Origin: a virus
Lineage: Duplodnaviria > Heunggongvirae > Uroviricota > Caudoviricetes
Virus record (IMG/VR): IMGVR_UViG_2563366855_000007
Coordinates: 1-14,521 of that record
Reading direction: 5' to 3' (one strand)
Length of the DNA stretch: 14,521 bases
A program made the translations under genes and the position numbers. The first letter of the stretch is position 1. Every line of letters begins with the position of its first letter. This document shows positions 1 to 14,281 of this stretch, piece after piece. The notes under the pieces are model-generated. The model was not told where the DNA came from and searched no databases. It was given only the letters and a program-made list of their open reading frames with translations.

Positions 1-411
1 TCAGTTCCTATCCTTCCAGTTGCCTTCCTGCAGCCCCCCCTCCCTGCTGTATACCCCGGTACCACAACGCGGGCAGCACTTTTCTCCTTCATAATCTTCG
101 TCACACATCACACAAAACCACTTTCTCACCTTCACCGTATAATCCGGAACCGTCATACCCTGCAGATGCAAACGACGGGCCTCTTTCTCTGCCGGGTCAA
201 GCCAGGTGCATCGCAGCAGGATTTTCTCAGCGACAGTCATCTGGTCATGTTCAAACCACGGTGGTTGTCCGTCATTGCCCCGCTGAAGTGTTAACGGGCA
301 TCCACAGGACACACAGCACAAAACGTCCTGGCGGTTGTGCTTCGCTGCTTCTTTCGCCGTAACAAAATGGCCTTTGCTGTCATTCGCCATATAACAGTTC
401 AGAATTCGCAT
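1..411 (-). CDS. Zinc-ribbon protein, paralog A (about 136 aa), function unknown
   Basis: ATG at 409-411 preceded by AGGAGG Shine-Dalgarno; TGA stop at 1-3. Several CxxC pairs and a PWFEH motif shared with the neighbouring ORF 399..800. The longer track ORF (to 498) has no RBS. Confidence 0.55.
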   Translation of the reverse strand: MRILNCYMANDSKGHFVTAKEAAKHNRQDVLCCVSCGCPLTLQRGNDGQPPWFEHDQMTVAEKILLRCTWLDPAEKEARRLHLQGMTVPDYTVKVRKWFCVMCDEDYEGEKCCPRCGTGVYSREGGLQEGNWKDRN

Positions 412-800
412 ATTTCCTCCTGAGTTGTCCGGGGAATACTGAATCCTCCGGTCTGGCAGTGTGTGCAGTACCGCTCCCCATAATAATCGTGGTGACATTG
501 TCTGCAGTGCCAGCTGGCTTTACGCACCACGGGTAAGGCATCCGGTACGAATTGCTGCAGACGTTTAATCAACTGTATTTCTCTGCGCTCCGGCCTGACA
601 TAAGGGCACTGTTGACCGTGCTCTGTCAGCCTGTCGTCAGTGTGTTCAAACCAGGGAAGTTCAGTGTCGTATTGCGGATGGTATCTGAGTGCACTGCCAC
701 ACAAGTGGCAGGTGTAGTGAGCATAAGGTGCGGCCTGTACAGTACGGGCGCCCGTCAGACGTCCGTTGCTATCAAGAGCGAGAAAGGATTTTGCGTACAT
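399..800 (-). CDS. Zinc-ribbon protein, paralog B (133 aa), function unknown
   Basis: ATG at 798-800 with AAGGAA-like SD; stop at 399-401 overlaps the start of paralog A by 13 nt (coupled). Shares PWFEH and the W-x-C-x2-C ... Y-x-G-E ... C-x2-C-x-T-G layout with paralog A. Confidence 0.55.
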   Translation of the reverse strand: MYAKSFLALDSNGRLTGARTVQAAPYAHYTCHLCGSALRYHPQYDTELPWFEHTDDRLTEHGQQCPYVRPERREIQLIKRLQQFVPDALPVVRKASWHCRQCHHDYYGERYCTHCQTGGFSIPRTTQEEICEF

Positions 801-965
801 AGTATATGTTCCTTACCGTCAGACGACACGCAGGCAACAGCCGTCCCGGTACGGGCAGCGTGGTCAGGTGTGAATGGCGGTTTCAGTTCAGTCTCATAAG
901 GGAAAATCAGTGTGGTGGCCATGAACACGTCATCACACTGAAGTCAGATAACTCGTCTGTCTGGC

Positions 966-1535
966 TCAGCCACGACTGCAGCCAAAGTTGCGCTCATCGG
1001 TGCAGTGAGCTTTGGTATGCTCCTTCGCCAGATAGTCAGCACGTTCCAGCACTTGCTGAAAGCCGGTGTCATCATTACGCGCCAGCCACACCGCCGGCCA
1101 GGCCGGAAAATGCACCAGCGTGGCATGGCATCCGGCATCCACCCCCAGGGCACTGCACCAGGCCTGTTCAATCATTCCGGCCAGTGATCCCGGAGCGCGG
1201 TAATCACCGGCACGACACCAGGTATCCCGGTTGACCAGCAGCATCAGATGATAGTGTTTTTTACCTTTGCACTCCCCAAACTCCCGGGCCCAGACGTAAT
1301 GCAGAGTGGTGGGATGCACGCGTTTACCTTCCCGATGCTTACGTTTCTGGTAAGCGTCGATTCGGGCTTTCAGGGCATTGATGAAGCGGGATATCACAGC
1401 TGCGTCCGTTGCTGCCGGTACATCCGGGAAACGCAGGTCAACCCGCAATGCCGTCAGGCGGGGATGAACATTCAGTGCGTGCCGCACTGTCTCACGAATA
1501 CGTTGCTGCCAGAAGGGGTTGTATTTGTAGGTCAT
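966..1535 (-). CDS. YfjJ/YagK-like (inovirus Gp2 family) protein
   Basis: ATG at 1533-1535 with GGAGAT SD 6 nt upstream (the track start at 1571 is a GTG without RBS). N-terminal YKYNPFWQQRI and RVDLRFP motifs recalled from the YagK/YfjJ family of E. coli cryptic prophage islands. Confidence 0.65.
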   Translation of the reverse strand: MTYKYNPFWQQRIRETVRHALNVHPRLTALRVDLRFPDVPAATDAAVISRFINALKARIDAYQKRKHREGKRVHPTTLHYVWAREFGECKGKKHYHLMLLVNRDTWCRAGDYRAPGSLAGMIEQAWCSALGVDAGCHATLVHFPAWPAVWLARNDDTGFQQVLERADYLAKEHTKAHCTDERNFGCSRG

Positions 1536-1667
1536 GGTTAAATCTCCGTATGGTTCATACGGAATAGCCACGTCGTAAAAAATGCGCAGAGTCCCTGAAG
1601 TGACCTCCGGCAGGGCACTGTCTCAGGCACTCTGTGATAACCCGAACGGTCGTCTCCGGACTGACGG

Positions 1668-1935: not shown

Positions 1936-2265
1936 GATAACGGTTCATGTATCCCCTGAGCTGACAGTGTACCGGGTATATTAAGCGTAACCGACAGGTT
2001 CTCCTTCATACCATATTAAATTTTTCCAGGTATTGCCGCTGCCTTATTTCGTCCCATACAGGAAAACTCGTCTGGGTTTCTGACAAATACGCGAAACTCA
2101 CAGCCCCTCAATATCAACCACACGCCGTAAGCCGGTAATACCTGATCAGACATGAGATAAATGAAGGGGGATCCGTGAGATAAATAACGAATTGGAGTGG
2201 GTTAACATGGGTTCTGGTGAACAGAACTGAAATTCTTTTCCGCTATACGATAGATAAGTCGGGCA

Positions 2266-2295
2266 TTGAAATCATCCTTCCTGGCAACTTAGAAT
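2266..2295 (+). promoter_or_regulatory. Sigma70-like promoter upstream of the 53-aa ORF
   Basis: TTGAAA (2266-2271), 18-nt spacer, TAGAAT (2290-2295). Confidence 0.35.
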
Positions 2296-2338
2296 CGAGT
2301 TTGCTGAAACATGACCCGCAACAAAAAGGATGATTCCA

Positions 2339-2500
2339 ATGACTACTCAAAACAATAAGCATGATAGCCTGGATTACTCAGAAAAGCCCAAAAGCAAGCA
2401 CATCGTGACGTTCGAGCGCGATTCCGGTAGAAAAGGAGAATCGTCTTCCTCTGCCAATAAAACCACTATGCCGGCAGCCCCTGCCCCAGGGAAAAAATAA
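2339..2500 (+). CDS. Hypothetical small hydrophilic protein (53 aa; below the ORF-track size cutoff)
   Basis: ATG 2339 with AAGGA 8 nt upstream, TAA at 2498-2500, candidate promoter upstream. Product MTTQNNKHDSLDYSEKPKSKHIVTFERDSGRKGESSSSANKTTMPAAPAPGKK is low-complexity; an in-frame alternative ATG lies at 2330. Confidence 0.25.
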   Translation: MTTQNNKHDSLDYSEKPKSKHIVTFERDSGRKGESSSSANKTTMPAAPAPGKK

Positions 2501-2503
2501 ACA

Positions 2504-3136
2504 TCATTCATCGTTCGTTGCACGAACGCGCCTGATCTCCACTCTGGCAATCTGATCTGCTGGAATATAGGTTGCCAGAGCTCCCCAGTACTTATCAACC
2601 ACGCCTTTATACTCTTCCCATTCGTTACTGCCTGAAGGGCTGCTGTGCGTGACGTAAAGAACCATATCGCCTTTATTCCCCTGGGTAAACGGACCGTTAG
2701 GCCACTCTTCAAAGTTCCCTGGCAGCCGTGACATCATACCGGAACCATCGCGAAGAATCACTCTGACCTCGGTAACGCTGAAGCCTGTTTGATCAAACAT
2801 TGCCTGCCATGCTGAGCTGGTATCGTCAGACCATGAAATATCATTATTCCACAGTAATCTGTACATCCATTTGCGACCGTACCTGCGCCACCACGCACCG
2901 CATGTAACGGCACACAGAAGTGCTGGTGGTGTTGCCAGCCAGGCATTCAGACCTGCCCACATAACAGCCTGGTAAGCCATCATTGCTGTCAGGCCAAAAA
3001 TCAGCGAAGAAAAAGTCACCTCAATGGGCTTGTGGTGATCCTTCAGTCCCACATTCGCAATAAAATACCCAATATAGCCACTGGTCAGGGTCACCAGTGT
3101 TGCCCATGGCAGATTTAACAACGAAACGTCAAACAT
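2504..3136 (-). CDS. Membrane protein: three predicted N-terminal TM helices plus about 125-aa soluble C-terminal domain; function unknown
   Basis: ATG at 3134-3136 with GGGAGA SD (alternative ATG at 3151 has poor spacing; track start 3214 is TTG). Hydrophobic segments LPWATLVTLTSGYIGYFIANV, VTFSSLIFGLTAMMAYQAVMWA, WLATPPALLCAVTCGAWW. Confidence 0.6.
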   Translation of the reverse strand: MFDVSLLNLPWATLVTLTSGYIGYFIANVGLKDHHKPIEVTFSSLIFGLTAMMAYQAVMWAGLNAWLATPPALLCAVTCGAWWRRYGRKWMYRLLWNNDISWSDDTSSAWQAMFDQTGFSVTEVRVILRDGSGMMSRLPGNFEEWPNGPFTQGNKGDMVLYVTHSSPSGSNEWEEYKGVVDKYWGALATYIPADQIARVEIRRVRATNDE

Positions 3137-3173
3137 ATTTTCTCCCTGCATCCTGAATACTAAAGAGAGAGCA

Positions 3174-3209
3174 TAAAAAAAGCACGGTAAGGGGTCTACC
3201 GTGCTTTTA
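3174..3209 (-). terminator. Rho-independent terminator ending the Mor operon (possibly bidirectional)
   Basis: Perfect 10-bp stem (3180-3189 / 3197-3206) with 7-nt loop. On the minus strand it is followed by a run of six U; on the plus strand by a shorter T-run (tttt). Confidence 0.7.
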
Positions 3210-3250
3210 TACAATAAGGAGATTTTTGAAAGGACTTTAACAAGCAGGAA

Positions 3251-3649
3251 TTATCTGGATTTGTTAACGTCTTTCGTCTCCTCTGGCAGATCTTCATCAA
3301 ACAACCTGCCCTGCATCCGATCCAGTTCTTCTTTTCTGACCCGCTTAACCACGCTGTAGACCCACTGAAGCGAAACACCAAACTTGCGGGCCAGTTCGTG
3401 GTGGTTGCGTCCGTTAAACTCCCTGAAGATTTCCCGGTCGCGCTGACTGACCTTCCATACCATGCCCATCGGGAAATAAACGTTTTGCCCGCCCCAGACC
3501 TGCATCATTCGGTTCGCGACGGCCTGACCAATCTGGTCGGCAATTGCGGGCTCAATATCAATAATCTCGCGAACGGTCTCAGAGGTATGCTGTGCCAGCT
3601 CCACCAGGAGTTCCGGCCCTTTACTTCGAAACTGATTCAGGTCGCTCAT
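3251..3649 (-). CDS. mor: Mor-family transcriptional activator (Mu middle operon regulator homolog)
   Basis: ATG 3647-3649 with GGGAG SD. Motifs GGQNVYFP ... RDREIFREFNGRN ... LARKFGVSLQWVYSVVKR match the Mor/C family pattern recalled from Mu Mor. Confidence 0.85.
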   Translation of the reverse strand: MSDLNQFRSKGPELLVELAQHTSETVREIIDIEPAIADQIGQAVANRMMQVWGGQNVYFPMGMVWKVSQRDREIFREFNGRNHHELARKFGVSLQWVYSVVKRVRKEELDRMQGRLFDEDLPEETKDVNKSR

Positions 3650-8057: not shown

Positions 8058-9827
8058 TCAGTTGCCGTTAACAATGCTGATAACACTGCTGCGGGCCGGT
8101 GTGGTCAGCGTGGCCATGACTTCATCCAGTGCGGCTTCCGGTACGCCGTCCGGGTACTGTGCCGTTAACTGGCGGTAATGTTCCGGCGTCCAGGTAAGGC
8201 CGTCGGCGCTGAACTTATCGCGCAGGGCTTTCGCGGCCTCCACATGAGTCATGGGACGTTGTTCAGTGCGCGGCCCGCGTACGTCAGAGGCCTGACCACG
8301 CTTCGGCATATAGGCCGGAAGTGTGGTGTCGTCGATATGTTTATACGGGTCAAGCCGCCCGCCGAACGGCAGCGCCTTCGCCTTGCGTGCGGCGGCTGCA
8401 TCTGCGGCGTTGTCTGTACCGGTAACCAGCGCTTCGGTTTCTTTTGCCGCCATCTGTGCCGGGGTTTCCGGCAGGGCTTTGTAACTTTCGCCAAATACCG
8501 CCGCGCCTTCAGCAAAGCCAAACTCGTTCTTTCTGACCTCTTCGACCAGGAAGAACGTCTCGTGGCCGTCCTCACCGGTCAGAACCACCTGTGCCACATC
8601 GCTGCGCCATGGGTTACGGGTAATCATCAGTTTTTCACCAACCAGTACGCCCGGTACCGTTGATACGTCAAATTCAGTGCCCCGGAACGAGACACGAAGT
8701 TTTGGCGTGACTTTGCGGAGTTCTGGTGCCGCCACAGCCAGTTCACGACATACCTCAACGGAAGGCGCTTTTTTCAGCTGCTCAGCAGTAATCTTCAGCC
8801 AGATATCCGTGCGGGTTTTACCGTGGCGGCTGTGAACAGCCGTGGCGTTAAAGTGGCTGCGCCATTTCGCGGCCAGCGCGTTGAGTTCTTCCAGACTGTG
8901 AACCGGCCGGAACTTCAGACCCGGCTCCAGCTTGCGTTCGATAATGTCACGCGCCTTTTCCACCTGTCCGGTGGCGCGGGCGTTATGCGGCTTGTGCGCT
9001 ATCAGGTCGATGCCCAGTGAGCGGCACATGTTTTTCGTCATACCCGCGGTGTTTGCCGAGCCGGGGTCGAGATAGAGTATTTTCGGCACGCCGTGCAGCA
9101 CGTCTGCGCCGCCACGCTCCTGCATGGCGTTGATAAGCACAGAACACAGGTTCTCACCTGATTCCGCGCCCGTCACATACTCAACGTAAATCCAGCCGCT
9201 GGCATGGTCGGTAATCTCGTAACTCCACACGCGGTCACTGGCGATACGGGCAAGGTTAGCGGGCTTGTTCTTGTAGAACTTCGCGCTGTCCATCACCTGC
9301 AGCCCTTTATGTCCATTGCTCAGGTAGTAAAGCGTGCAGAGTGAGGCGTCAATCTGCCAGACATGATTGGGATGCAGACTGGCCACTTCGGTATGTGGTG
9401 CAGGGGCATCCAGTTGTTCCGGGTGCAGGCCATAGTTACGCAGAGCACGGCTGATGGCATCTTCAGACAACGGGAAAAACTCACTGGTGGTTTCATCTGT
9501 TCTGCCTGCGGTGATAAAGCCGTTAGCCCGCAGGGTTTCCACTGCATCTGCGATGGAATAGAGACGCTTACCGTTCTTGCGGGTGGCCTCACGCAGTGTG
9601 GCAGATATCAGCGCGGCTTCGTCGCGGGTCAGGGCGCTGCGCCCGGCATCGGCGCGTTTTTTGCGTTTATCAGTCACAGATACCTCCTTCAGCCTGCGCA
9701 GCAGAGTGGCGCGGGACATGCCAAGTTCAGCACAGGCAGCGTCGTATACTGCGCCGCGTTTACCATGCCCCGCGTCACGTGCCGCGCGGGCGACATAAAC
9801 CAGTCGTTCAGTCAGGGCAGCATTCAT
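8058..9827 (-). CDS. DDE transposase, MuA-like (rve/integrase core; 589 aa)
   Basis: ATG 9825-9827 with GGAGG SD. Catalytic triad candidates D in HVWQIDAS, D in LYLDPGSANT, E in GQVEKARDIIERK; N-terminal HTH. Sits directly upstream of the AAA+ partner as in Mu A-B. Confidence 0.85.
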   Translation of the reverse strand: MNAALTERLVYVARAARDAGHGKRGAVYDAACAELGMSRATLLRRLKEVSVTDKRKKRADAGRSALTRDEAALISATLREATRKNGKRLYSIADAVETLRANGFITAGRTDETTSEFFPLSEDAISRALRNYGLHPEQLDAPAPHTEVASLHPNHVWQIDASLCTLYYLSNGHKGLQVMDSAKFYKNKPANLARIASDRVWSYEITDHASGWIYVEYVTGAESGENLCSVLINAMQERGGADVLHGVPKILYLDPGSANTAGMTKNMCRSLGIDLIAHKPHNARATGQVEKARDIIERKLEPGLKFRPVHSLEELNALAAKWRSHFNATAVHSRHGKTRTDIWLKITAEQLKKAPSVEVCRELAVAAPELRKVTPKLRVSFRGTEFDVSTVPGVLVGEKLMITRNPWRSDVAQVVLTGEDGHETFFLVEEVRKNEFGFAEGAAVFGESYKALPETPAQMAAKETEALVTGTDNAADAAAARKAKALPFGGRLDPYKHIDDTTLPAYMPKRGQASDVRGPRTEQRPMTHVEAAKALRDKFSADGLTWTPEHYRQLTAQYPDGVPEAALDEVMATLTTPARSSVISIVNGN

Positions 9828-11827: not shown

Positions 11828-11859
11828 CCGGAAAGCATTGTGCTTTCCGGTTTTGTTTC
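11828..11859 (+). terminator. Rho-independent terminator downstream of the repressor gene
   Basis: Perfect 10-bp stem CCGGAAAGCA / TGCTTTCCGG (11828-11837 / 11841-11850), 3-nt loop, then TTTTGTTTC. Confidence 0.75.
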
Positions 11860-12622
11860 AGAAGTTGCAGATTACCAGTTCACGGCGCGGCGTGGATTTC
11901 CCCGCCAGACTGTAGTTGATGTTCACTGTCTGTATGTTCAGTCCAGTGAACACCTCGCGCATCTGTGGGATATCGTTCACCGAAATTATCATTTTTCCTC
12001 TGATGCACCGGGCCAGCTCTGCCAGCCGCGAGTAGTTCCCTTCAGGAAAATCCACACCATAGCCTTCCGTACCCAGGTACGGTGGGTCGCAGTAGAACAG
12101 TGTGTGCGGACGATCATAACGCTCAATGCACTGTTGCCAGTCCATGTGTTCTATGACTGTTCTGGAAAGCCGCAGGTGTGCTGCTGACAGTTCTTCTTCA
12201 ATACGCAGCAGGTTGAAGCGTGGCGGGGATGTGGTGGAGGTACCGAAGCTGTGCTCTGCCACCTTGCCGCCAAACGCCTGCTTCTGAAGGTAGTAGAACC
12301 GTGCCGCACGCTGGATATCCGTCAGTGTTTCTTCCGGGGTGATCTGCAGCCATTTGTAGATCTGACGGCTGACCAGCGCCCATTTGAACTGGCGGACAAA
12401 TTCTTCCAGGTGATGCTTTACCACCCGGTACAGATTCACCAGTTCACCGTTGATATCATTGATGACTTCGATCTTGCCGGGTGTCTTAAGAAAATAGAGC
12501 GCTGCTGCCCCACAAAACGGCTCCACATAACATTCATGCGCCGGAAACAGCGGCAGGATGTGTTTTGCCAGGCGACGTTTGCCACCAATCCATGGAACGA
12601 TGGGTAATGTCTTCATTTTCAT
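11858..12622 (-). CDS. Dam-family (D12 class) DNA N6-adenine methyltransferase, orphan
   Basis: ATG 12620-12622. N-terminal PWIGGKRRL, motif I EPFCGAAALYF, catalytic DPPY, C-terminal RRELVICNF. No adjacent restriction endonuclease candidate. Confidence 0.88.
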   Translation of the reverse strand: MKMKTLPIVPWIGGKRRLAKHILPLFPAHECYVEPFCGAAALYFLKTPGKIEVINDINGELVNLYRVVKHHLEEFVRQFKWALVSRQIYKWLQITPEETLTDIQRAARFYYLQKQAFGGKVAEHSFGTSTTSPPRFNLLRIEEELSAAHLRLSRTVIEHMDWQQCIERYDRPHTLFYCDPPYLGTEGYGVDFPEGNYSRLAELARCIRGKMIISVNDIPQMREVFTGLNIQTVNINYSLAGKSTPRRELVICNF

Positions 12623-12663
12623 AATCTGTAAGCCTTTTACAATTATTAAAAATATGGCAGGCT

Positions 12664-12770
12664 AGTCTGGTCTCGCGAGACTGACTGAACCTCGGTCGGC
12701 TCACAGCCACTTCTGTGGGACGATGGCCAGCCCGGTGGGTCCGAAGCACCGGGCTGGTCGTTCTTTCATG
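12664..12770. promoter_or_regulatory. Structured non-coding region upstream of the Dam-like gene: 12-bp perfect palindrome plus GC-rich hairpin
   Basis: GTCTCGCGAGAC at 12670-12681 flanked by AGTC/GACT; 11-bp perfect stem CCAGCCCGGTG / CACCGGGCTGG (12727-12737 / 12747-12757) with 9-nt loop, followed on the plus strand by TCGTTCTTTC. Confidence 0.35.
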
Positions 12771-12813
12771 ATGCGGCAGGGATAGTGGGATTTCTGTTAA
12801 TGTGGTTTAGGGA

Positions 12814-13029
12814 TTATCCGGGGCGATTTTCTGACCTTATCCGGTCCAGGGCATAAGTAATACCTTCTGCAAAAACAGAAGTATCAAACTGCTTTTGTAT
12901 TCCCTGAAAATGAAAAGCGGCACGACAGACACTCAGTTCTCCGCGATGTAACCGGATAATATCTTCCAGAACATTGTTCACTGCTTCAGCACGGCGCTGA
13001 TGTTCTGTTAACGTTAATCGGGGATTCAT
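12814..13029 (-). CDS. Hypothetical protein (71 aa)
   Basis: ATG 13027-13029 with AAGGAG SD 6 nt upstream; no recognisable domain. Confidence 0.4.
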   Translation of the reverse strand: MNPRLTLTEHQRRAEAVNNVLEDIIRLHRGELSVCRAAFHFQGIQKQFDTSVFAEGITYALDRIRSENRPG

Positions 13030-13432
13030 GATGCACTCCTTAAATGATGATTTTTATGCACTCACCGGCAAAATATTCTGCCGATTACTGAACACGCATC
13101 CGGCACCTCAGGTTTTGATTTATTCTGGTTTTTTCGATATCCCGGACCAGGTTGATCACGACCAGAAAAAGTGCCGGTATTTTATTGATACGCTGATATG
13201 GCTTCGGGATAACAGCTATATTCGTTACTCTCAGTTGCTGGCTGTGGGAGCGGCTGATGTCGTCCTCACGGAAAAAACGCTCCGTCTGCTCAATGCCACG
13301 CCGACCCTTCTGCAGCCCCGGCCCGCACCATTTAAAGAGTCACTTCTGGATGCAGTAAAAACCGGTGAAAATGCAGTCATCGCTGAATGCGTATCCCGGA
13401 TTATGCGTTACGTGTTTAATGAACGTAAGTGA
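13028..13432 (+). CDS. Hypothetical protein (about 134 aa)
   Basis: ATG 13028 or 13031 with a weak GGGGA SD. The start overlaps the divergent 71-aa ORF start and the 3' end overlaps the P-loop gene by 25 nt, so it may not be real. Confidence 0.3.
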   Translation: MMHSLNDDFYALTGKIFCRLLNTHPAPQVLIYSGFFDIPDQVDHDQKKCRYFIDTLIWLRDNSYIRYSQLLAVGAADVVLTEKTLRLLNATPTLLQPRPAPFKESLLDAVKTGENAVIAECVSRIMRYVFNERK

Positions 13433-14151
13433 GGTTTATCCGCTGTCTGCATAATCCCGATAGCCAGTGCGAGGGGAAGTAATTCCGGGGAAACTCTTTC
13501 AAACAGCGACTCCCATTCTCCTCTCGCCATCACTCTGTCCAGCCCGCCCCCCAGTTGCATTTCAGCAATCTTCCTGATTTCCCGGAACAACGCCGCTTTG
13601 ATCTCTTCGTGCTCAGCTTTATTTTCCGGTGTCAGAATGTATTCGTCGAAGAACCGGGGAGGCTGGTTAACGGGGAGCGTGTTCACCGGGATGTGTTCCT
13701 GTTTCCCGTACTTCGGGGCAGAAAAACATTCTGTTGGCTGACCGGTGAGTTTACGTAGCTCCTTCATGAGCAGCTCCTGATCGTAAACTGTCATCAGTGC
13801 CGCAATGGTGGCATGCAGTGCATCGGGCAGTATCCAGGGTTGCCGGCCCGTGGGGCATATAACATCCAGCAGCTCATTCGTCCGACAGATACGCTCCTCG
13901 CCGTATGACAACAGGCCCTGTCCCGTGTATTCCTCCAGCTTGATCACTGTGCCACCCCGTGGCTTCTGCCAGGTCGTCAGATCATCGCCACTCATACGCC
14001 GCTCATCATCTACGTCTGCAGCATCGACAATGACGCTGCCCCCGAATTCCTGTTTCACCACTTCCTCTATCCGCGCCAATATGTAACTTTTACCGCTGCC
14101 CACAGGACCGGACACGGTGACAGTGATGACCGGATTCAGTGTCTGCGTCAT
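13408..14151 (-). CDS. P-loop NTPase, kinase-like (247 aa), function unknown
   Basis: ATG 14149-14151 with GAGGAGA SD 7 nt upstream. Walker A GPVGSGKS immediately after an N-terminal beta strand (VITVTVSG), as in small-molecule/nucleotide kinases. Confidence 0.65.
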   Translation of the reverse strand: MTQTLNPVITVTVSGPVGSGKSYILARIEEVVKQEFGGSVIVDAADVDDERRMSGDDLTTWQKPRGGTVIKLEEYTGQGLLSYGEERICRTNELLDVICPTGRQPWILPDALHATIAALMTVYDQELLMKELRKLTGQPTECFSAPKYGKQEHIPVNTLPVNQPPRFFDEYILTPENKAEHEEIKAALFREIRKIAEMQLGGGLDRVMARGEWESLFERVSPELLPLALAIGIMQTADKPHLRSLNT

Positions 14152-14281
14152 ATCGTATTCTCCTCTGTGAATAATTCATCGTTTATCCTGCACATCCCGT
14201 ATCCCCGGCTCTCTTAACGCGCTTTAAAATCCTTCGCGCCCTGTATTTGTGATGCTGTCTCCACCAGACAAGGAGACACAC

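Follow-up and report, generated by a model that had tools for sequence, protein, structure and literature searches.

For the window, by which we mean the whole stretch of 14,521 nucleotides that was analysed, we found good support for an autonomous two-gene accessory cassette (a "moron") at positions 2183-3293, placed between mor and the end of the genome of a complete BcepMu-like transposable prophage. The cassette is a conserved two-gene cargo carried by temperate phages at variable accessory sites, and it encodes a 210-aa protein predicted to lie in the inner membrane together with a very small proline-rich partner. The explanation that best fits the whole, which we advance tentatively and hold at somewhat less than an even chance, is that of an insulated gene pair that responds to a Mor-type activator and plays a role in phage conflict at the inner membrane.

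Prophage context and distribution of the cassette

The conserved genes of the early arm end with mor (3251-3649, minus strand), which encodes a late activator of the Mor/C family (Pfam PF08765, E 1e-43) and is normally the last gene before the prophage genome ends at window position 2144. The segment homologous to many E. coli genomes breaks off at 2142-2144, the flanking genes vary from genome to genome, and what lies left of 2144 is flanking DNA; in NZ_CP098187 the prophage splits rfaH. This end was placed by alignment with EC958, strain 503025 and CFSAN051542, and the terminal segment (2144-2186), whose minus-strand 3' end reads ...CATTTATCTCATGTCTGATCA, contains two GAGATAAAT repeats that from their sequence are probable transposase-binding sites. 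The first-pass annotation had located the membrane-protein gene at the point where Mu-like phages continue into their late genes, a placement that does not hold, since the genome ends at 2144 and the late genes occupy the other arm, beginning with a holin promoter near 14.2 kb.

Alignments with cargo-less prophages delimit a variable module of about 1.1 kb (approximately 2183-3293), which includes the last ~14 codons of mor. Among 640 E. coli genomes with the same Mor-GemA region, 118 have this module; of the closely related E. coli prophages, about 82% lack it. EC958, strain 503025 and BcepMu have no cassette and Mor is their terminal gene, and in KP12 and CFSAN051542 the slot after mor holds a different small ORF. 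The reading of the gene as accessory cargo likewise stands, given its patchy presence, its apparent insulation by terminators and a homologue in a hotspot of P2-like phages. Presence or absence at the same site among close relatives, one hallmark of a moron, is thus found here; as to the other, an own promoter and terminator, the terminator and the partner's promoter are clear and the membrane gene has a putative promoter.

In all of the Mu-like enteric loci the membrane-protein gene directly follows Mor, even where Mor is 32-38% identical. Elsewhere its neighbours change: in alphaproteobacterial phages the homologue is inserted between head or tail genes, at a Bradyrhizobium locus the upstream HTH protein is of HTH_7 type and not detectably Mor, and in a P2-like phage (L062) a homologue with 58% identity lies directly after the Ogr/Delta activator gene in the gpQ-gpA defence hotspot, which was defined by Rousset et al. 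2022 (PMC9122126). The hotspot association is a single locus and amounts to weak guilt by association for a phage-conflict reading. By keyword, the family is not among the systems in the tables of that study (PMC9122126), and "system 4", which is abundant at the P2 hotspot and has 3 TM helices, was rejected as a relative (hhalign probability 0.3%). The paper on Pseudomonas phage Fc02 describes exclusion genes near the repressor; these have no relation to the locus studied here. A plasmid search returned almost no matches.

The membrane protein and its proline-rich partner

The membrane-protein gene (2504-3136, minus strand; ATG at 3136, stop at 2504) encodes 210 aa and is a real gene, as the first-pass annotation had it: full-length homologues were recovered in 72 clusters in one search and in 522 representative clusters in another, giving a family of about 520 clusters at 50% identity, and dN/dS values of 0.05-0.20 indicate purifying selection. 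Its description as three TM helices followed by a soluble C-terminal domain stood in part. The AlphaFold (AF2) model, with a mean pLDDT of 84, shows both the helices (approximately residues 9-84, nt 3112-2885) and a C-terminal domain rich in beta structure, and sets the helices at 11-27, 37-60 and 65-97, whereas the Kyte-Doolittle hydrophobicity of the three helices is moderate (1.0-1.5), so that "transmembrane" is well supported for this protein, short of proof. Five K/R residues follow helix 3, and the C-terminal domain should therefore be cytoplasmic; overall we predict an inner-membrane protein of N-out/C-in topology with three polar-faced helices.

The predicted cytoplasmic domain (approximately residues 98-205, nt 2845-2522) models as an Sm-like beta-barrel, and its best structure matches are to Sm/LSm proteins. 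The N-terminal helix and strongly bent five-stranded beta-sheet that characterise the Sm/LSm fold are both seen in the model. The Sm2 motif has the consensus R-G-D-N-V-x-Y-I, which the motif G-D-x-V-L-Y-V of the window family resembles; within the family G-D...Y is invariant and the basic residue before it is not conserved. At the sequence level we found no match of the window protein to the LSm, Hfq or MS_channel families. MscS, too, joins three TM helices to a cytoplasmic Sm-like ring, an arrangement that the window protein may share; neither an MS_channel (PF00924) domain nor a close structural match of the kind expected for an MscS-type channel was found.

Neither cassette protein gave a match above threshold to Pfam, NCBIfam or PADLOC. 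With the PADLOC-DB v2 models there were zero matches for the 210-aa protein, the 53-aa partner or the neighbour genes; the family as a whole matched no defence, holin or transporter models, and a PDB sequence-profile search with the 210-aa protein gave nothing significant. Domain fusions were sought among its longer relatives and none was found. The extensions of those longer relatives look like mis-called starts. In the literature, no member of the family was found to have been characterised.

The partner gene (2339-2500, plus strand) encodes 53 aa; the product (MTTQNN...PAAPAPGKK) is hydrophilic and rich in proline, and an alternative in-frame ATG upstream at 2330 would give 56 aa. The partner gene converges on the membrane-protein gene, the stop codons being 3 nt apart, and its presence corrects the earlier description of the locus as a single gene. 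The gene is a RefSeq CDS in locus L001 (40299-40460) and its product matches PHROG 15726 (E 1e-41). A small proline-rich ORF abuts the 3' end of the membrane gene in most of the approximately 30 loci examined in Enterobacterales and Alphaproteobacteria; these abutting ORFs share a C-terminal PPxPx(K/R)K motif across both groups, and a repeated (N/S)-(Y/F)-x-P-x-T motif is conserved as well. Where it could be computed, dN/dS of the partner gene is 0.05-0.25, again purifying selection. Signal peptide, leader sequence and cysteines are all absent from the partner small proteins, and a disordered, basic, proline-rich protein of 53 aa ending in PPxPxKK is a well supported description.

Partner transcription can be assigned to a sigma-70 promoter (2266-2295, plus strand; TTGAAA, 18-nt spacer, TAGAAT) that matches the consensus at 10 of 12 positions and is kept in the Klebsiella, Citrobacter, Serratia, Symbiopectobacterium and Salmonella copies. 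It overlaps a 16-nt inverted repeat (2264-2341, plus strand; arms 2264-2279 and 2326-2341, 94% complementary), one arm of which covers the -35 element and the other the ribosome-binding site and start codon. The repeat folds at -21.9 kcal/mol (z -2.2) and is kept across lineages, with the changes in L021 matching in both arms.

DUF6338 (PF19865) offers the nearest named comparison, since its members too are membrane proteins of about 200 aa with no known function. DUF6338 proteins have approximately 170-230 aa and N-terminal helices, and the window protein, with 210 aa and N-terminal helices, agrees in both respects. The window protein itself gave no match to the model even at E <= 10, and 20 of 38 of its relatives match weakly (E <= 0.1; best E 1.4e-6), with scores of 22-26 bits that lie below the Pfam gathering threshold of 26.5 bits. 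On these profile scores the window protein would be a sister or outlying subfamily of DUF6338 rather than a certified member. In P. stutzeri the DUF6338 gene Pstu14405_RS12030 adjoins three proline-rich small proteins whose peptides were seen by mass spectrometry (PMC10433244), and these have motifs in common with the partners (VQG...T..RPS.PP...PPKK and a C-terminal PPPPKK), although that study reported its own peptides as not conserved outside P. stutzeri (PMC10433244). The small genes are there triplicated and co-directional with the DUF6338 gene, whereas the window has one convergent gene, which shows that not every locus has the convergent arrangement.

Transcription signals between mor and the cassette

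An intrinsic terminator (3175-3208; AAAAGCACGGTAG-ACCCC-TTACCGTGCTTTT, then a T-run) separates mor from the cassette. Its hairpin (3208-3178) is strong (-19.1 kcal/mol, z -6.9, followed by 7 T), and with the A-tract on its opposite side it could work in both directions. The end of the T-run lies 38 nt from the ATG of the membrane-protein gene, in agreement with the distance first given, and a Shine-Dalgarno sequence GGGAGAA (3147-3141, minus strand) falls in between. Of the 20 enteric upstream regions scanned, 14 have a hairpin with a T-run at this position, and the sequences differ. At the other border, an inward-facing terminator-like hairpin (2210-2228, plus strand) is weak (-9.6 kcal/mol, z -2.1) and could block transcription that enters the prophage from the flank; together, the two structures appear to insulate the gene pair from read-in transcription.

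From the short distance to the start codon, the first-pass annotation had reasoned that an independent promoter would not fit and that the gene may depend on read-through. This argument fails, because the promoter Pm of phage Mu (9163-9233, annotated as Mor-dependent) itself contains a predicted terminator (9179-9200) and because sister cassettes carry Mor-box promoters: in L018, L024 and L049 the TTAA-N6-TTAA dyad is exact and is spaced from a -10-like hexamer as in the late promoters. In Mu the next ATG is about 45-48 nt past the Pm hairpin, compared with 38 nt past the T-run in the window, and the Mor site is centred at -43.5 (PMC4390567). The Mu dyad is (G/T)TAA-N6-TTAA and the cassette dyads are of the TTAA-N6-TTAA type. 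Transcription from Mu Pm starts past the hairpin, whereas for the cassette lineages the start is predicted within the 5' arm, and the Mu middle operon (Pm, genes 18, 19, 20 and C), which like the cassette starts immediately after mor, runs on into C and then the late genes, whereas here the genome ends 360 nt past the cassette.

The late promoters of the prophage allowed us to derive a putative Mor-box consensus, (T/C)TAA-N6-TTAA, in which the dyad would lie ~43 nt upstream of the start without a -35 element. In 38 kb there are 4 exact TTAA-N6-TTAA dyads where 0.23 would be expected, three of the four being upstream of late operons, and one-mismatch dyads mark a fourth late promoter of this prophage as well as the holin promoter of BcepMu. 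A -10-like hexamer is found 31-36 nt from the dyad centre at the four late promoters and at the BcepMu holin promoter, and the consensus with such a hexamer at this distance should help in annotating BcepMu-like late promoters. In cassette lineage B the geometry of dyad and -10 equals that of the late promoters, and in L018, L024 and L049 it would put the start site within the 5' arm of the terminator.

In the window, a Mor-box-like dyad (3227-3240, minus strand; TTAA-AGTCCT-TTCA) lies just past the mor stop codon in the orientation of the cassette, and its half-sites are kept with a variable spacer in L019, L020, L072, L047 and L050. It has one mismatch to TTAA-N6-TTAA, is 11 nt closer to the terminator, and likewise to the nearest -10-like hexamer, than the canonical position, with no good -10 hexamer at the expected distance, and dyad-like sites are not significantly enriched within the window alone (7 found versus 3.2 expected), so that Mor dependence of the window copy is uncertain. 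A candidate -10, TATAAA (3206-3211, minus strand), overlaps the first three bases of the 5' arm (3208-3206) and would place the start site near 3199, within the stem; in a folding computation, a transcript from 3199 did not form the terminator. Most other terminator-bearing lineages (L014, L018, L024, L049, L052 and the L021/L068 type) also have a -10-like hexamer immediately ahead of the stem. An alternative -10 candidate, TAGTAT (3157-3162, minus strand), lies downstream of the terminator without an acceptable -35. A sigma-70 consensus scan of the minus strand between mor and the cassette found no promoter. We also considered a Mu-like geometry in which the hairpin would be the Mor site at -43 of a TAGTAT-driven start, and dropped it because the hairpin agrees with the TTAA-N6-TTAA dyad at just 4 of 8 half-site positions and goes with the cassette, not with the type of Mor.

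Possible functions of the cassette

Phage morons such as HK97 gp15 and P22 SieA encode inner-membrane exclusion proteins and have their own promoter and terminator. The cassette is like them in being a small autonomous unit, variably present between conserved phage genes, with an inner-membrane product, and differs in having no homology to them, two components and a large conserved cytoplasmic domain that is predicted to be Sm-like. A phage-versus-phage function at the membrane is what the cassette would most plausibly provide. We hypothesise that in the lysogen the small protein would be made constitutively from its own strong sigma-70 promoter, and that the membrane gene, having a -35-less promoter beside a Mor-box-like dyad, would be weakly expressed until a Mor-type activator arrives, either through induction of the prophage itself or from an infecting relative. 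Transcription from the Mor-type promoter of the sister cassettes would begin within the 5' arm of the terminator, and activator-driven transcripts would thereby get past the stop signal that ends those of the early operon. The membrane protein would then probably oligomerise via its Sm-like domain, as Sm rings do, and the proline-rich tail of the partner would probably bind the barrel and modulate it, the outcome being most likely superinfection exclusion or abortive infection to the benefit of the lysogen or of the induced phage. It is SH3 domains that bind proline-rich peptides; for Sm domains such binding is, to our knowledge, not documented.

If a phage-conflict function is true, a widespread two-component family (approximately 520 clusters at 50% identity) joins the prophage-encoded repertoire, and a function would be found for the DUF6338 neighbourhood and for very small proline-rich proteins that annotation often misses. 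The regulatory layout is in addition a testable design principle, in which a terminator stops upstream transcription and an activator-dependent promoter starts in its stem; such a layout would explain how accessory genes can be added behind an operon and yet escape read-through from it. A still more specific reading would join a Mor-responsive start within the stem, a pore or membrane-perturbing complex built on an Sm ring, and proline-rich peptides that bind the ring and set its threshold. We regard this combination as decidedly unlikely in all its parts at once; were it correct, the placement after Mor, Ogr/Delta and, in Bradyrhizobium, HTH_7 genes would reflect the sensing of late activators.

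Other explanations were weighed against a role in phage conflict. The cassette might instead supply a Mor-dependent middle or late product that helps phage development, for example in lysis timing, as a pair resembling a holin or antiholin, or in protection of the already infected cell, which we consider unlikely. Such a helper would parallel gp19 (4 TM) and gp20 (1 TM) of Mu, non-essential membrane proteins of unknown function that follow mor in the Pm-driven middle operon (PMC9239132), and would agree with the Mor-box promoters upstream of lineage B cassettes and with the co-orientation of the gene with the structural gene immediately upstream in the phage contexts examined (L062, L065, L067, L069-L071). 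The Mu proteins are however not holins (PMC9239132), the window protein has no sequence or architectural likeness to gp19 (4 TM, 120 aa) or gp20 (1 TM), and about four-fifths of close E. coli prophages do without the cassette, while the late arm of this one already has a holin, an SLT endolysin and accessory lysis genes. The predicted N-out/C-in topology with three polar TM helices does resemble that of class I holins, and there are weak fold matches to LydA-type holins, but these are non-significant (E 0.04-1, TM-score ~0.3), and a protein of 210 aa with a large conserved cytoplasmic domain is unlike holins. Class I holins have approximately 70-110 aa and a short charged C-terminus and are encoded beside an endolysin, whereas the globular domain here has ~110 aa by itself. 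BFVD matches to the 3-TM bundle were too weak for holin membership.

A toxin-antitoxin or addiction pair, with a membrane toxin neutralised by an unstable small protein or an antisense transcript and the prophage stabilised as a result, is highly unlikely in our judgement. The small, disordered, fast-evolving partner under a strong promoter would suit it, as would the overlapping transcripts that convergent abutting 3' ends would give, and 3 of 38 relatives faintly match the CptA membrane-toxin family (E ~0.04), albeit far below threshold. Against it, a convergent layout is unusual for protein-protein pairs, type II systems being co-directional two-gene operons whose toxin kills when the antitoxin is missing; the P. 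stutzeri orientation is co-directional with three small genes, and intact membrane-protein genes persist without a partner in L022, L023, L059 and L062. The small proteins might alternatively be the product, acting as signal, antimicrobial-like or ribosome-directed peptides, with the membrane protein serving for immunity, export or as receptor. This is compatible with the conservation of PPxPxKK and (N/S)-(Y/F)-x-P-x-T, with the abundance and three tandem copies of the P. stutzeri small proteins, and with the remarks of that study on possible antimicrobial roles and on DUF6338 in biosynthetic gene clusters (PMC10433244). It is nevertheless quite improbable, as the small proteins have neither a signal peptide nor a leader sequence nor cysteines, the prediction places the soluble domain of the membrane protein in the cytoplasm and not outside the cell, and a transporter-like fold or family match is absent. 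Extremely improbable, finally, is the view of a single-gene effector without a promoter of its own, expressed solely by read-through of the mor terminator. The 38 nt between T-run and ATG and the outcome of the sigma-70 scan speak for it, yet the terminator is strong, every lineage has promoter elements ahead of the hairpin and overlapping it, Mu gives a direct precedent for a promoter containing a terminator, and the gene is abutted by its partner.

Prophage layout and the cassette beside mor

In NZ_CP098187 we found a 100%-identical copy of the window's right-hand 3.8 kb and a 99.9%-identical copy of the cassette region, both part of one complete ~38 kb prophage (L001) that splits rfaH and is ordered genome end, cassette, mor, gemA, ..., B, A, immunity region, dam, holin, endolysin, heads, tails. 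Homology to many E. coli genomes ends at window 2142-2144, beyond which the gene varies by genome (phoX, malE, sfaA, rfaH and others). The minus-strand terminus of the prophage, ...CATTTATCTCATGTCTGATCA-3', implies that the genome ends in 5'-TG...CA-3' termini, which are typical of Mu-type transposable phages, and two copies of the end repeat GAGATAAAT lie just inside it. PhiKM, a near relative, is classified in genus Bcepmuvirus, and BcepMu has mor as its gene 1, with 364 nt between it and the genome end. The layout in this prophage and in BcepMu indicates that mor is normally the last gene of the early arm, with the late genes on the far side of the immunity region. The first-pass annotation had assumed the Mu gene order and placed the membrane-protein gene where late genes continue; this has to be abandoned, since the genome ends at window 2144. 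All DNA to the left is flank outside the prophage; it carries a gene of the YagK/YfjJ family and two DUF7828 plus zinc-ribbon paralogues (window 1-1571), so in this genome the prophage has landed inside another island-like region. Some 145 bp (window 2152-2296), with the end repeats and the promoter of the small gene among them, have ~90%-identical counterparts in unannotated DNA of many large E. coli plasmids (105 plasmid places), possibly left over from a Mu-like end. The stretch from the immunity region to the holin promoter (window 11858-14151) is likely a second accessory region; it contains a gene for a Dam-type methylase and three hypothetical genes, not all in the same orientation.

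The two genes between mor and the genome end form an apparently insulated accessory cassette. The mor-gemA segment was found in 640 of the 5,426 complete E. coli genomes, and only 118 have the further 1.1 kb that reach from mor to the genome end; in EC958 and strain 503025 mor is only ~170 bp from the end. Aligned prophages with and without the module share just the terminal ~40 bp plus mor as far as ~3293, so that the module spans ~2183-3293. Other cargo at this position, a check proposed earlier, was indeed found: in Klebsiella phage KP12 (L002 97-426) and E. coli CFSAN051542 (L008 2117-2446) the slot is filled by a 109-aa Gp27-N-like ORF, whose match to Mu Gp27 (terminase small-subunit-like family) is confined to that protein's N-terminal 53 residues. 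Judged from these sequence comparisons, the membrane-protein gene is variable cargo of the prophage.

The membrane protein and its proline-rich partner

The membrane-protein ORF proposed at 2504-3136 is well founded: it runs on the minus strand from the ATG at 3136 to the stop codon at 2506-2504 (210 aa), with full-length relatives in 72 clusters of a 90%-identity protein collection and pairwise dN/dS of 0.05-0.20, in the purifying range. Among 1.8 billion representatives searched, 522 clusters match its profile at E <= 1e-3, nearly all 200-215 aa long. The architecture claimed for it, three N-terminal transmembrane helices and a C-terminal domain, is recovered in an AlphaFold model built with 38 homologues (mean pLDDT 84; helices at residues 11-27, 37-60 and 65-97; beta-rich domain from ~118 to 205), the transmembrane part less firmly, as helix hydropathy is only moderate (Kyte-Doolittle 1.0-1.5). 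Five K/R residues after helix 3 predict an N-out, C-in topology, and the model shows an Sm-like domain that is predicted to be cytoplasmic. Profile and structure searches, also suggested earlier, gave no match among Pfam, NCBIfam and PADLOC models and nothing in the PDB by sequence-profile search. Viral fold matches to holins were weak and reflect the helical bundle only, 20 of 38 relatives gave weak sub-threshold matches to DUF6338, and no informative domain fusions were found among the relatives.

The first-pass annotation described a single gene. There is a convergent partner at 2339-2500 on the plus strand (53 aa, PHROG 15726), its stop codon 3 nt from that of the membrane-protein gene, and this small gene is conserved and separately promoted. 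Equivalent hydrophilic proline-rich ORFs of 40-66 aa abut the membrane-protein gene's 3' end in E. coli, Klebsiella, Citrobacter, Serratia, Symbiopectobacterium and Salmonella, with stop codons ranging from a 20-nt overlap to 7 nt apart. Bradyrhizobium, Afipia, Devosia and other Alphaproteobacteria have them too, next to a membrane-protein gene that lies outside any Mu-like phage and shares only 36-46% identity; a few cassettes (L022, L023, L059, L062) lack the partner. The small proteins have in common a central motif, (Y/F)-x-x-x-P-(K/Q/R), of which alphaproteobacterial versions have up to three copies, and a C-terminal P-P-x-P-x-(K/R)-K motif; dN/dS is 0.05-0.25 where computable, and the enteric genes have a conserved sigma-70 promoter, TTGAAA-18-TAGAAT. 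The equivalents across taxa, the motifs, dN/dS and the promoter rule out a gene-caller artefact.

Independent support that these small genes are real comes from the proteomics of Pseudomonas stutzeri, where three proline-rich small proteins, each with 44-114 peptide-spectrum matches, are encoded beside a DUF6338 gene (PMC10433244). Two of them (...APTAPPPPKK and ...VQGGVNKETTSQRPSAPPSAPPPPPKKGG) are given there, and the authors held these peptides to be confined to P. stutzeri (PMC10433244). They carry the same motifs as the partners described here, for example VQGNHIPTTNERPSTPPPSPKKK from Bradyrhizobium. The P. stutzeri small genes are co-directional with the DUF6338 gene whereas the window pair is convergent, so adjacency is conserved and convergence is not.

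An inverted repeat with 16-nt arms (window 2264-2279 and 2326-2341) covers the small gene's -35 with one arm and that gene's ribosome-binding site plus start codon with the other. At least six lineages keep the repeat, with matching changes in both arms in the L021 cassette; it may act as a pair of operators, or hide the ribosome-binding site when transcription reads in. In Bradyrhizobium and Afipia, a conserved 156-aa gene with no family match lies a few bases upstream of the small gene in the same orientation (L009 8802-9272 in Bradyrhizobium; equivalents in L025 and L028) and may be a third component there.

The terminator after mor and a candidate late promoter

A strong intrinsic terminator follows mor (3208-3178; -19.1 kcal/mol, z -6.9), and its T-run ends 38 nt upstream of the ATG, in line with the distance reported before. 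That this leaves no room for a promoter does not hold, since in Mu the annotated Mor-dependent promoter Pm (9163-9233) itself encloses a predicted terminator (9179-9200), with the next gene beginning 48 nt past it. Mor binds a 16-bp dyad centred at -43.5 (PMC4390567). The 38 kb L001 prophage has four exact TTAA-N6-TTAA dyads (0.23 expected), three of them upstream of late operons (holin, tail, baseplate); the head operon is preceded by a one-mismatch dyad, and all four late promoters (L001 8645, 15257, 21174, 28572) have a -10-like hexamer (GATGCT, CATACT, AATACT, CAAACT) 31-36 nt from the dyad centre. The BcepMu holin promoter has the same layout (CTAA-N6-TTAA then CAAGAT; L005 11485), and the window's only exact dyad (14214-14227) precedes the holin gene. 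(T/C)TAA-N6-TTAA with a hexamer at this distance is a probable Mor-binding consensus of the prophage family. The fourth exact L001 dyad (3162-3175) lies inside a recombinase (invertase-like) gene beside tail-fibre genes.

In the sister cassettes of lineage B (L018, L024, L049), an exact dyad after mor is followed 31-36 nt away by a CAAyAT hexamer that stops one base short of the terminator's 5' arm, which puts the predicted start site inside the stem. Transcripts started there would lack the 5' arm and escape termination, while those of the early operon would terminate. Where a terminator was detected, most of the other lineages also place a -10-like hexamer directly before the stem (Klebsiella TAACAT, the Symbiopectobacterium type TATAAC, the window TATAAA); in the window a transcript from ~3199 does not fold into the terminator by computed folding. 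The candidate dyad of the window lineage (3240-3227, TTAA-AGTCCT-TTCA, one mismatch) has conserved half-sites and a variable spacer, and sits 11 nt nearer the stem than its lineage B counterpart, and therefore departs from the canonical geometry; such sites are also not enriched within the window alone. Given the mismatch, the spacing and this lack of enrichment, we rate Mor dependence of the window's gene as about an even chance. An activator promoter embedded in a terminator would be an unusual, testable arrangement.

Possible function and genomic contexts

We hypothesise that expression of the membrane protein is activator-gated, that the protein oligomerises through its Sm-like domain, that the partner's proline-rich tail binds the Sm-like barrel, and that the outcome would be phage conflict, by exclusion or abortive infection. 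The pair could instead be a helper of the lytic cycle along the lines of Mu gp19 and gp20 (membrane proteins that are non-essential and are not holins), or a toxin-antitoxin-like addiction pair, or a system centred on the peptides, with the membrane protein handling the small proteins. The type of element, a prophage moron encoding a membrane protein, is already familiar; its components are not: we found no characterised member of the family, no entry in defence databases, and no report that it is paired, across phyla of Proteobacteria, with a conserved proline-rich micro-protein.

The cassette is portable: temperate phages of unrelated kinds carry it, in one case within a defence hotspot. All gammaproteobacterial Mu-like loci have the membrane-protein gene directly after mor, even at 32-38% Mor identity. 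Its position in the one P2-like phage (L062) is the interval from portal gene Q to replication gene A, which in P2-like phages is a hotspot carrying old, tin and many validated defence systems (PMC9122126). Alphaproteobacterial phages have it between head-tail connector genes, or among head or tail genes, and in Allosphingosinicella a DUF4411 and M78-peptidase gene pair lies ~1 kb away, with one hypothetical gene in between. This is the distribution expected of a portable moron. A small regulator gene just before the membrane-protein gene was seen in three unrelated contexts: mor, the Ogr/Delta zinc-finger gene of the P2-like phage (L062 5636-5959, directly upstream) and a small HTH_7 gene in Bradyrhizobium genomes (L009 7658-7927); two of the three, Mor and Ogr/Delta, are phage late activators.
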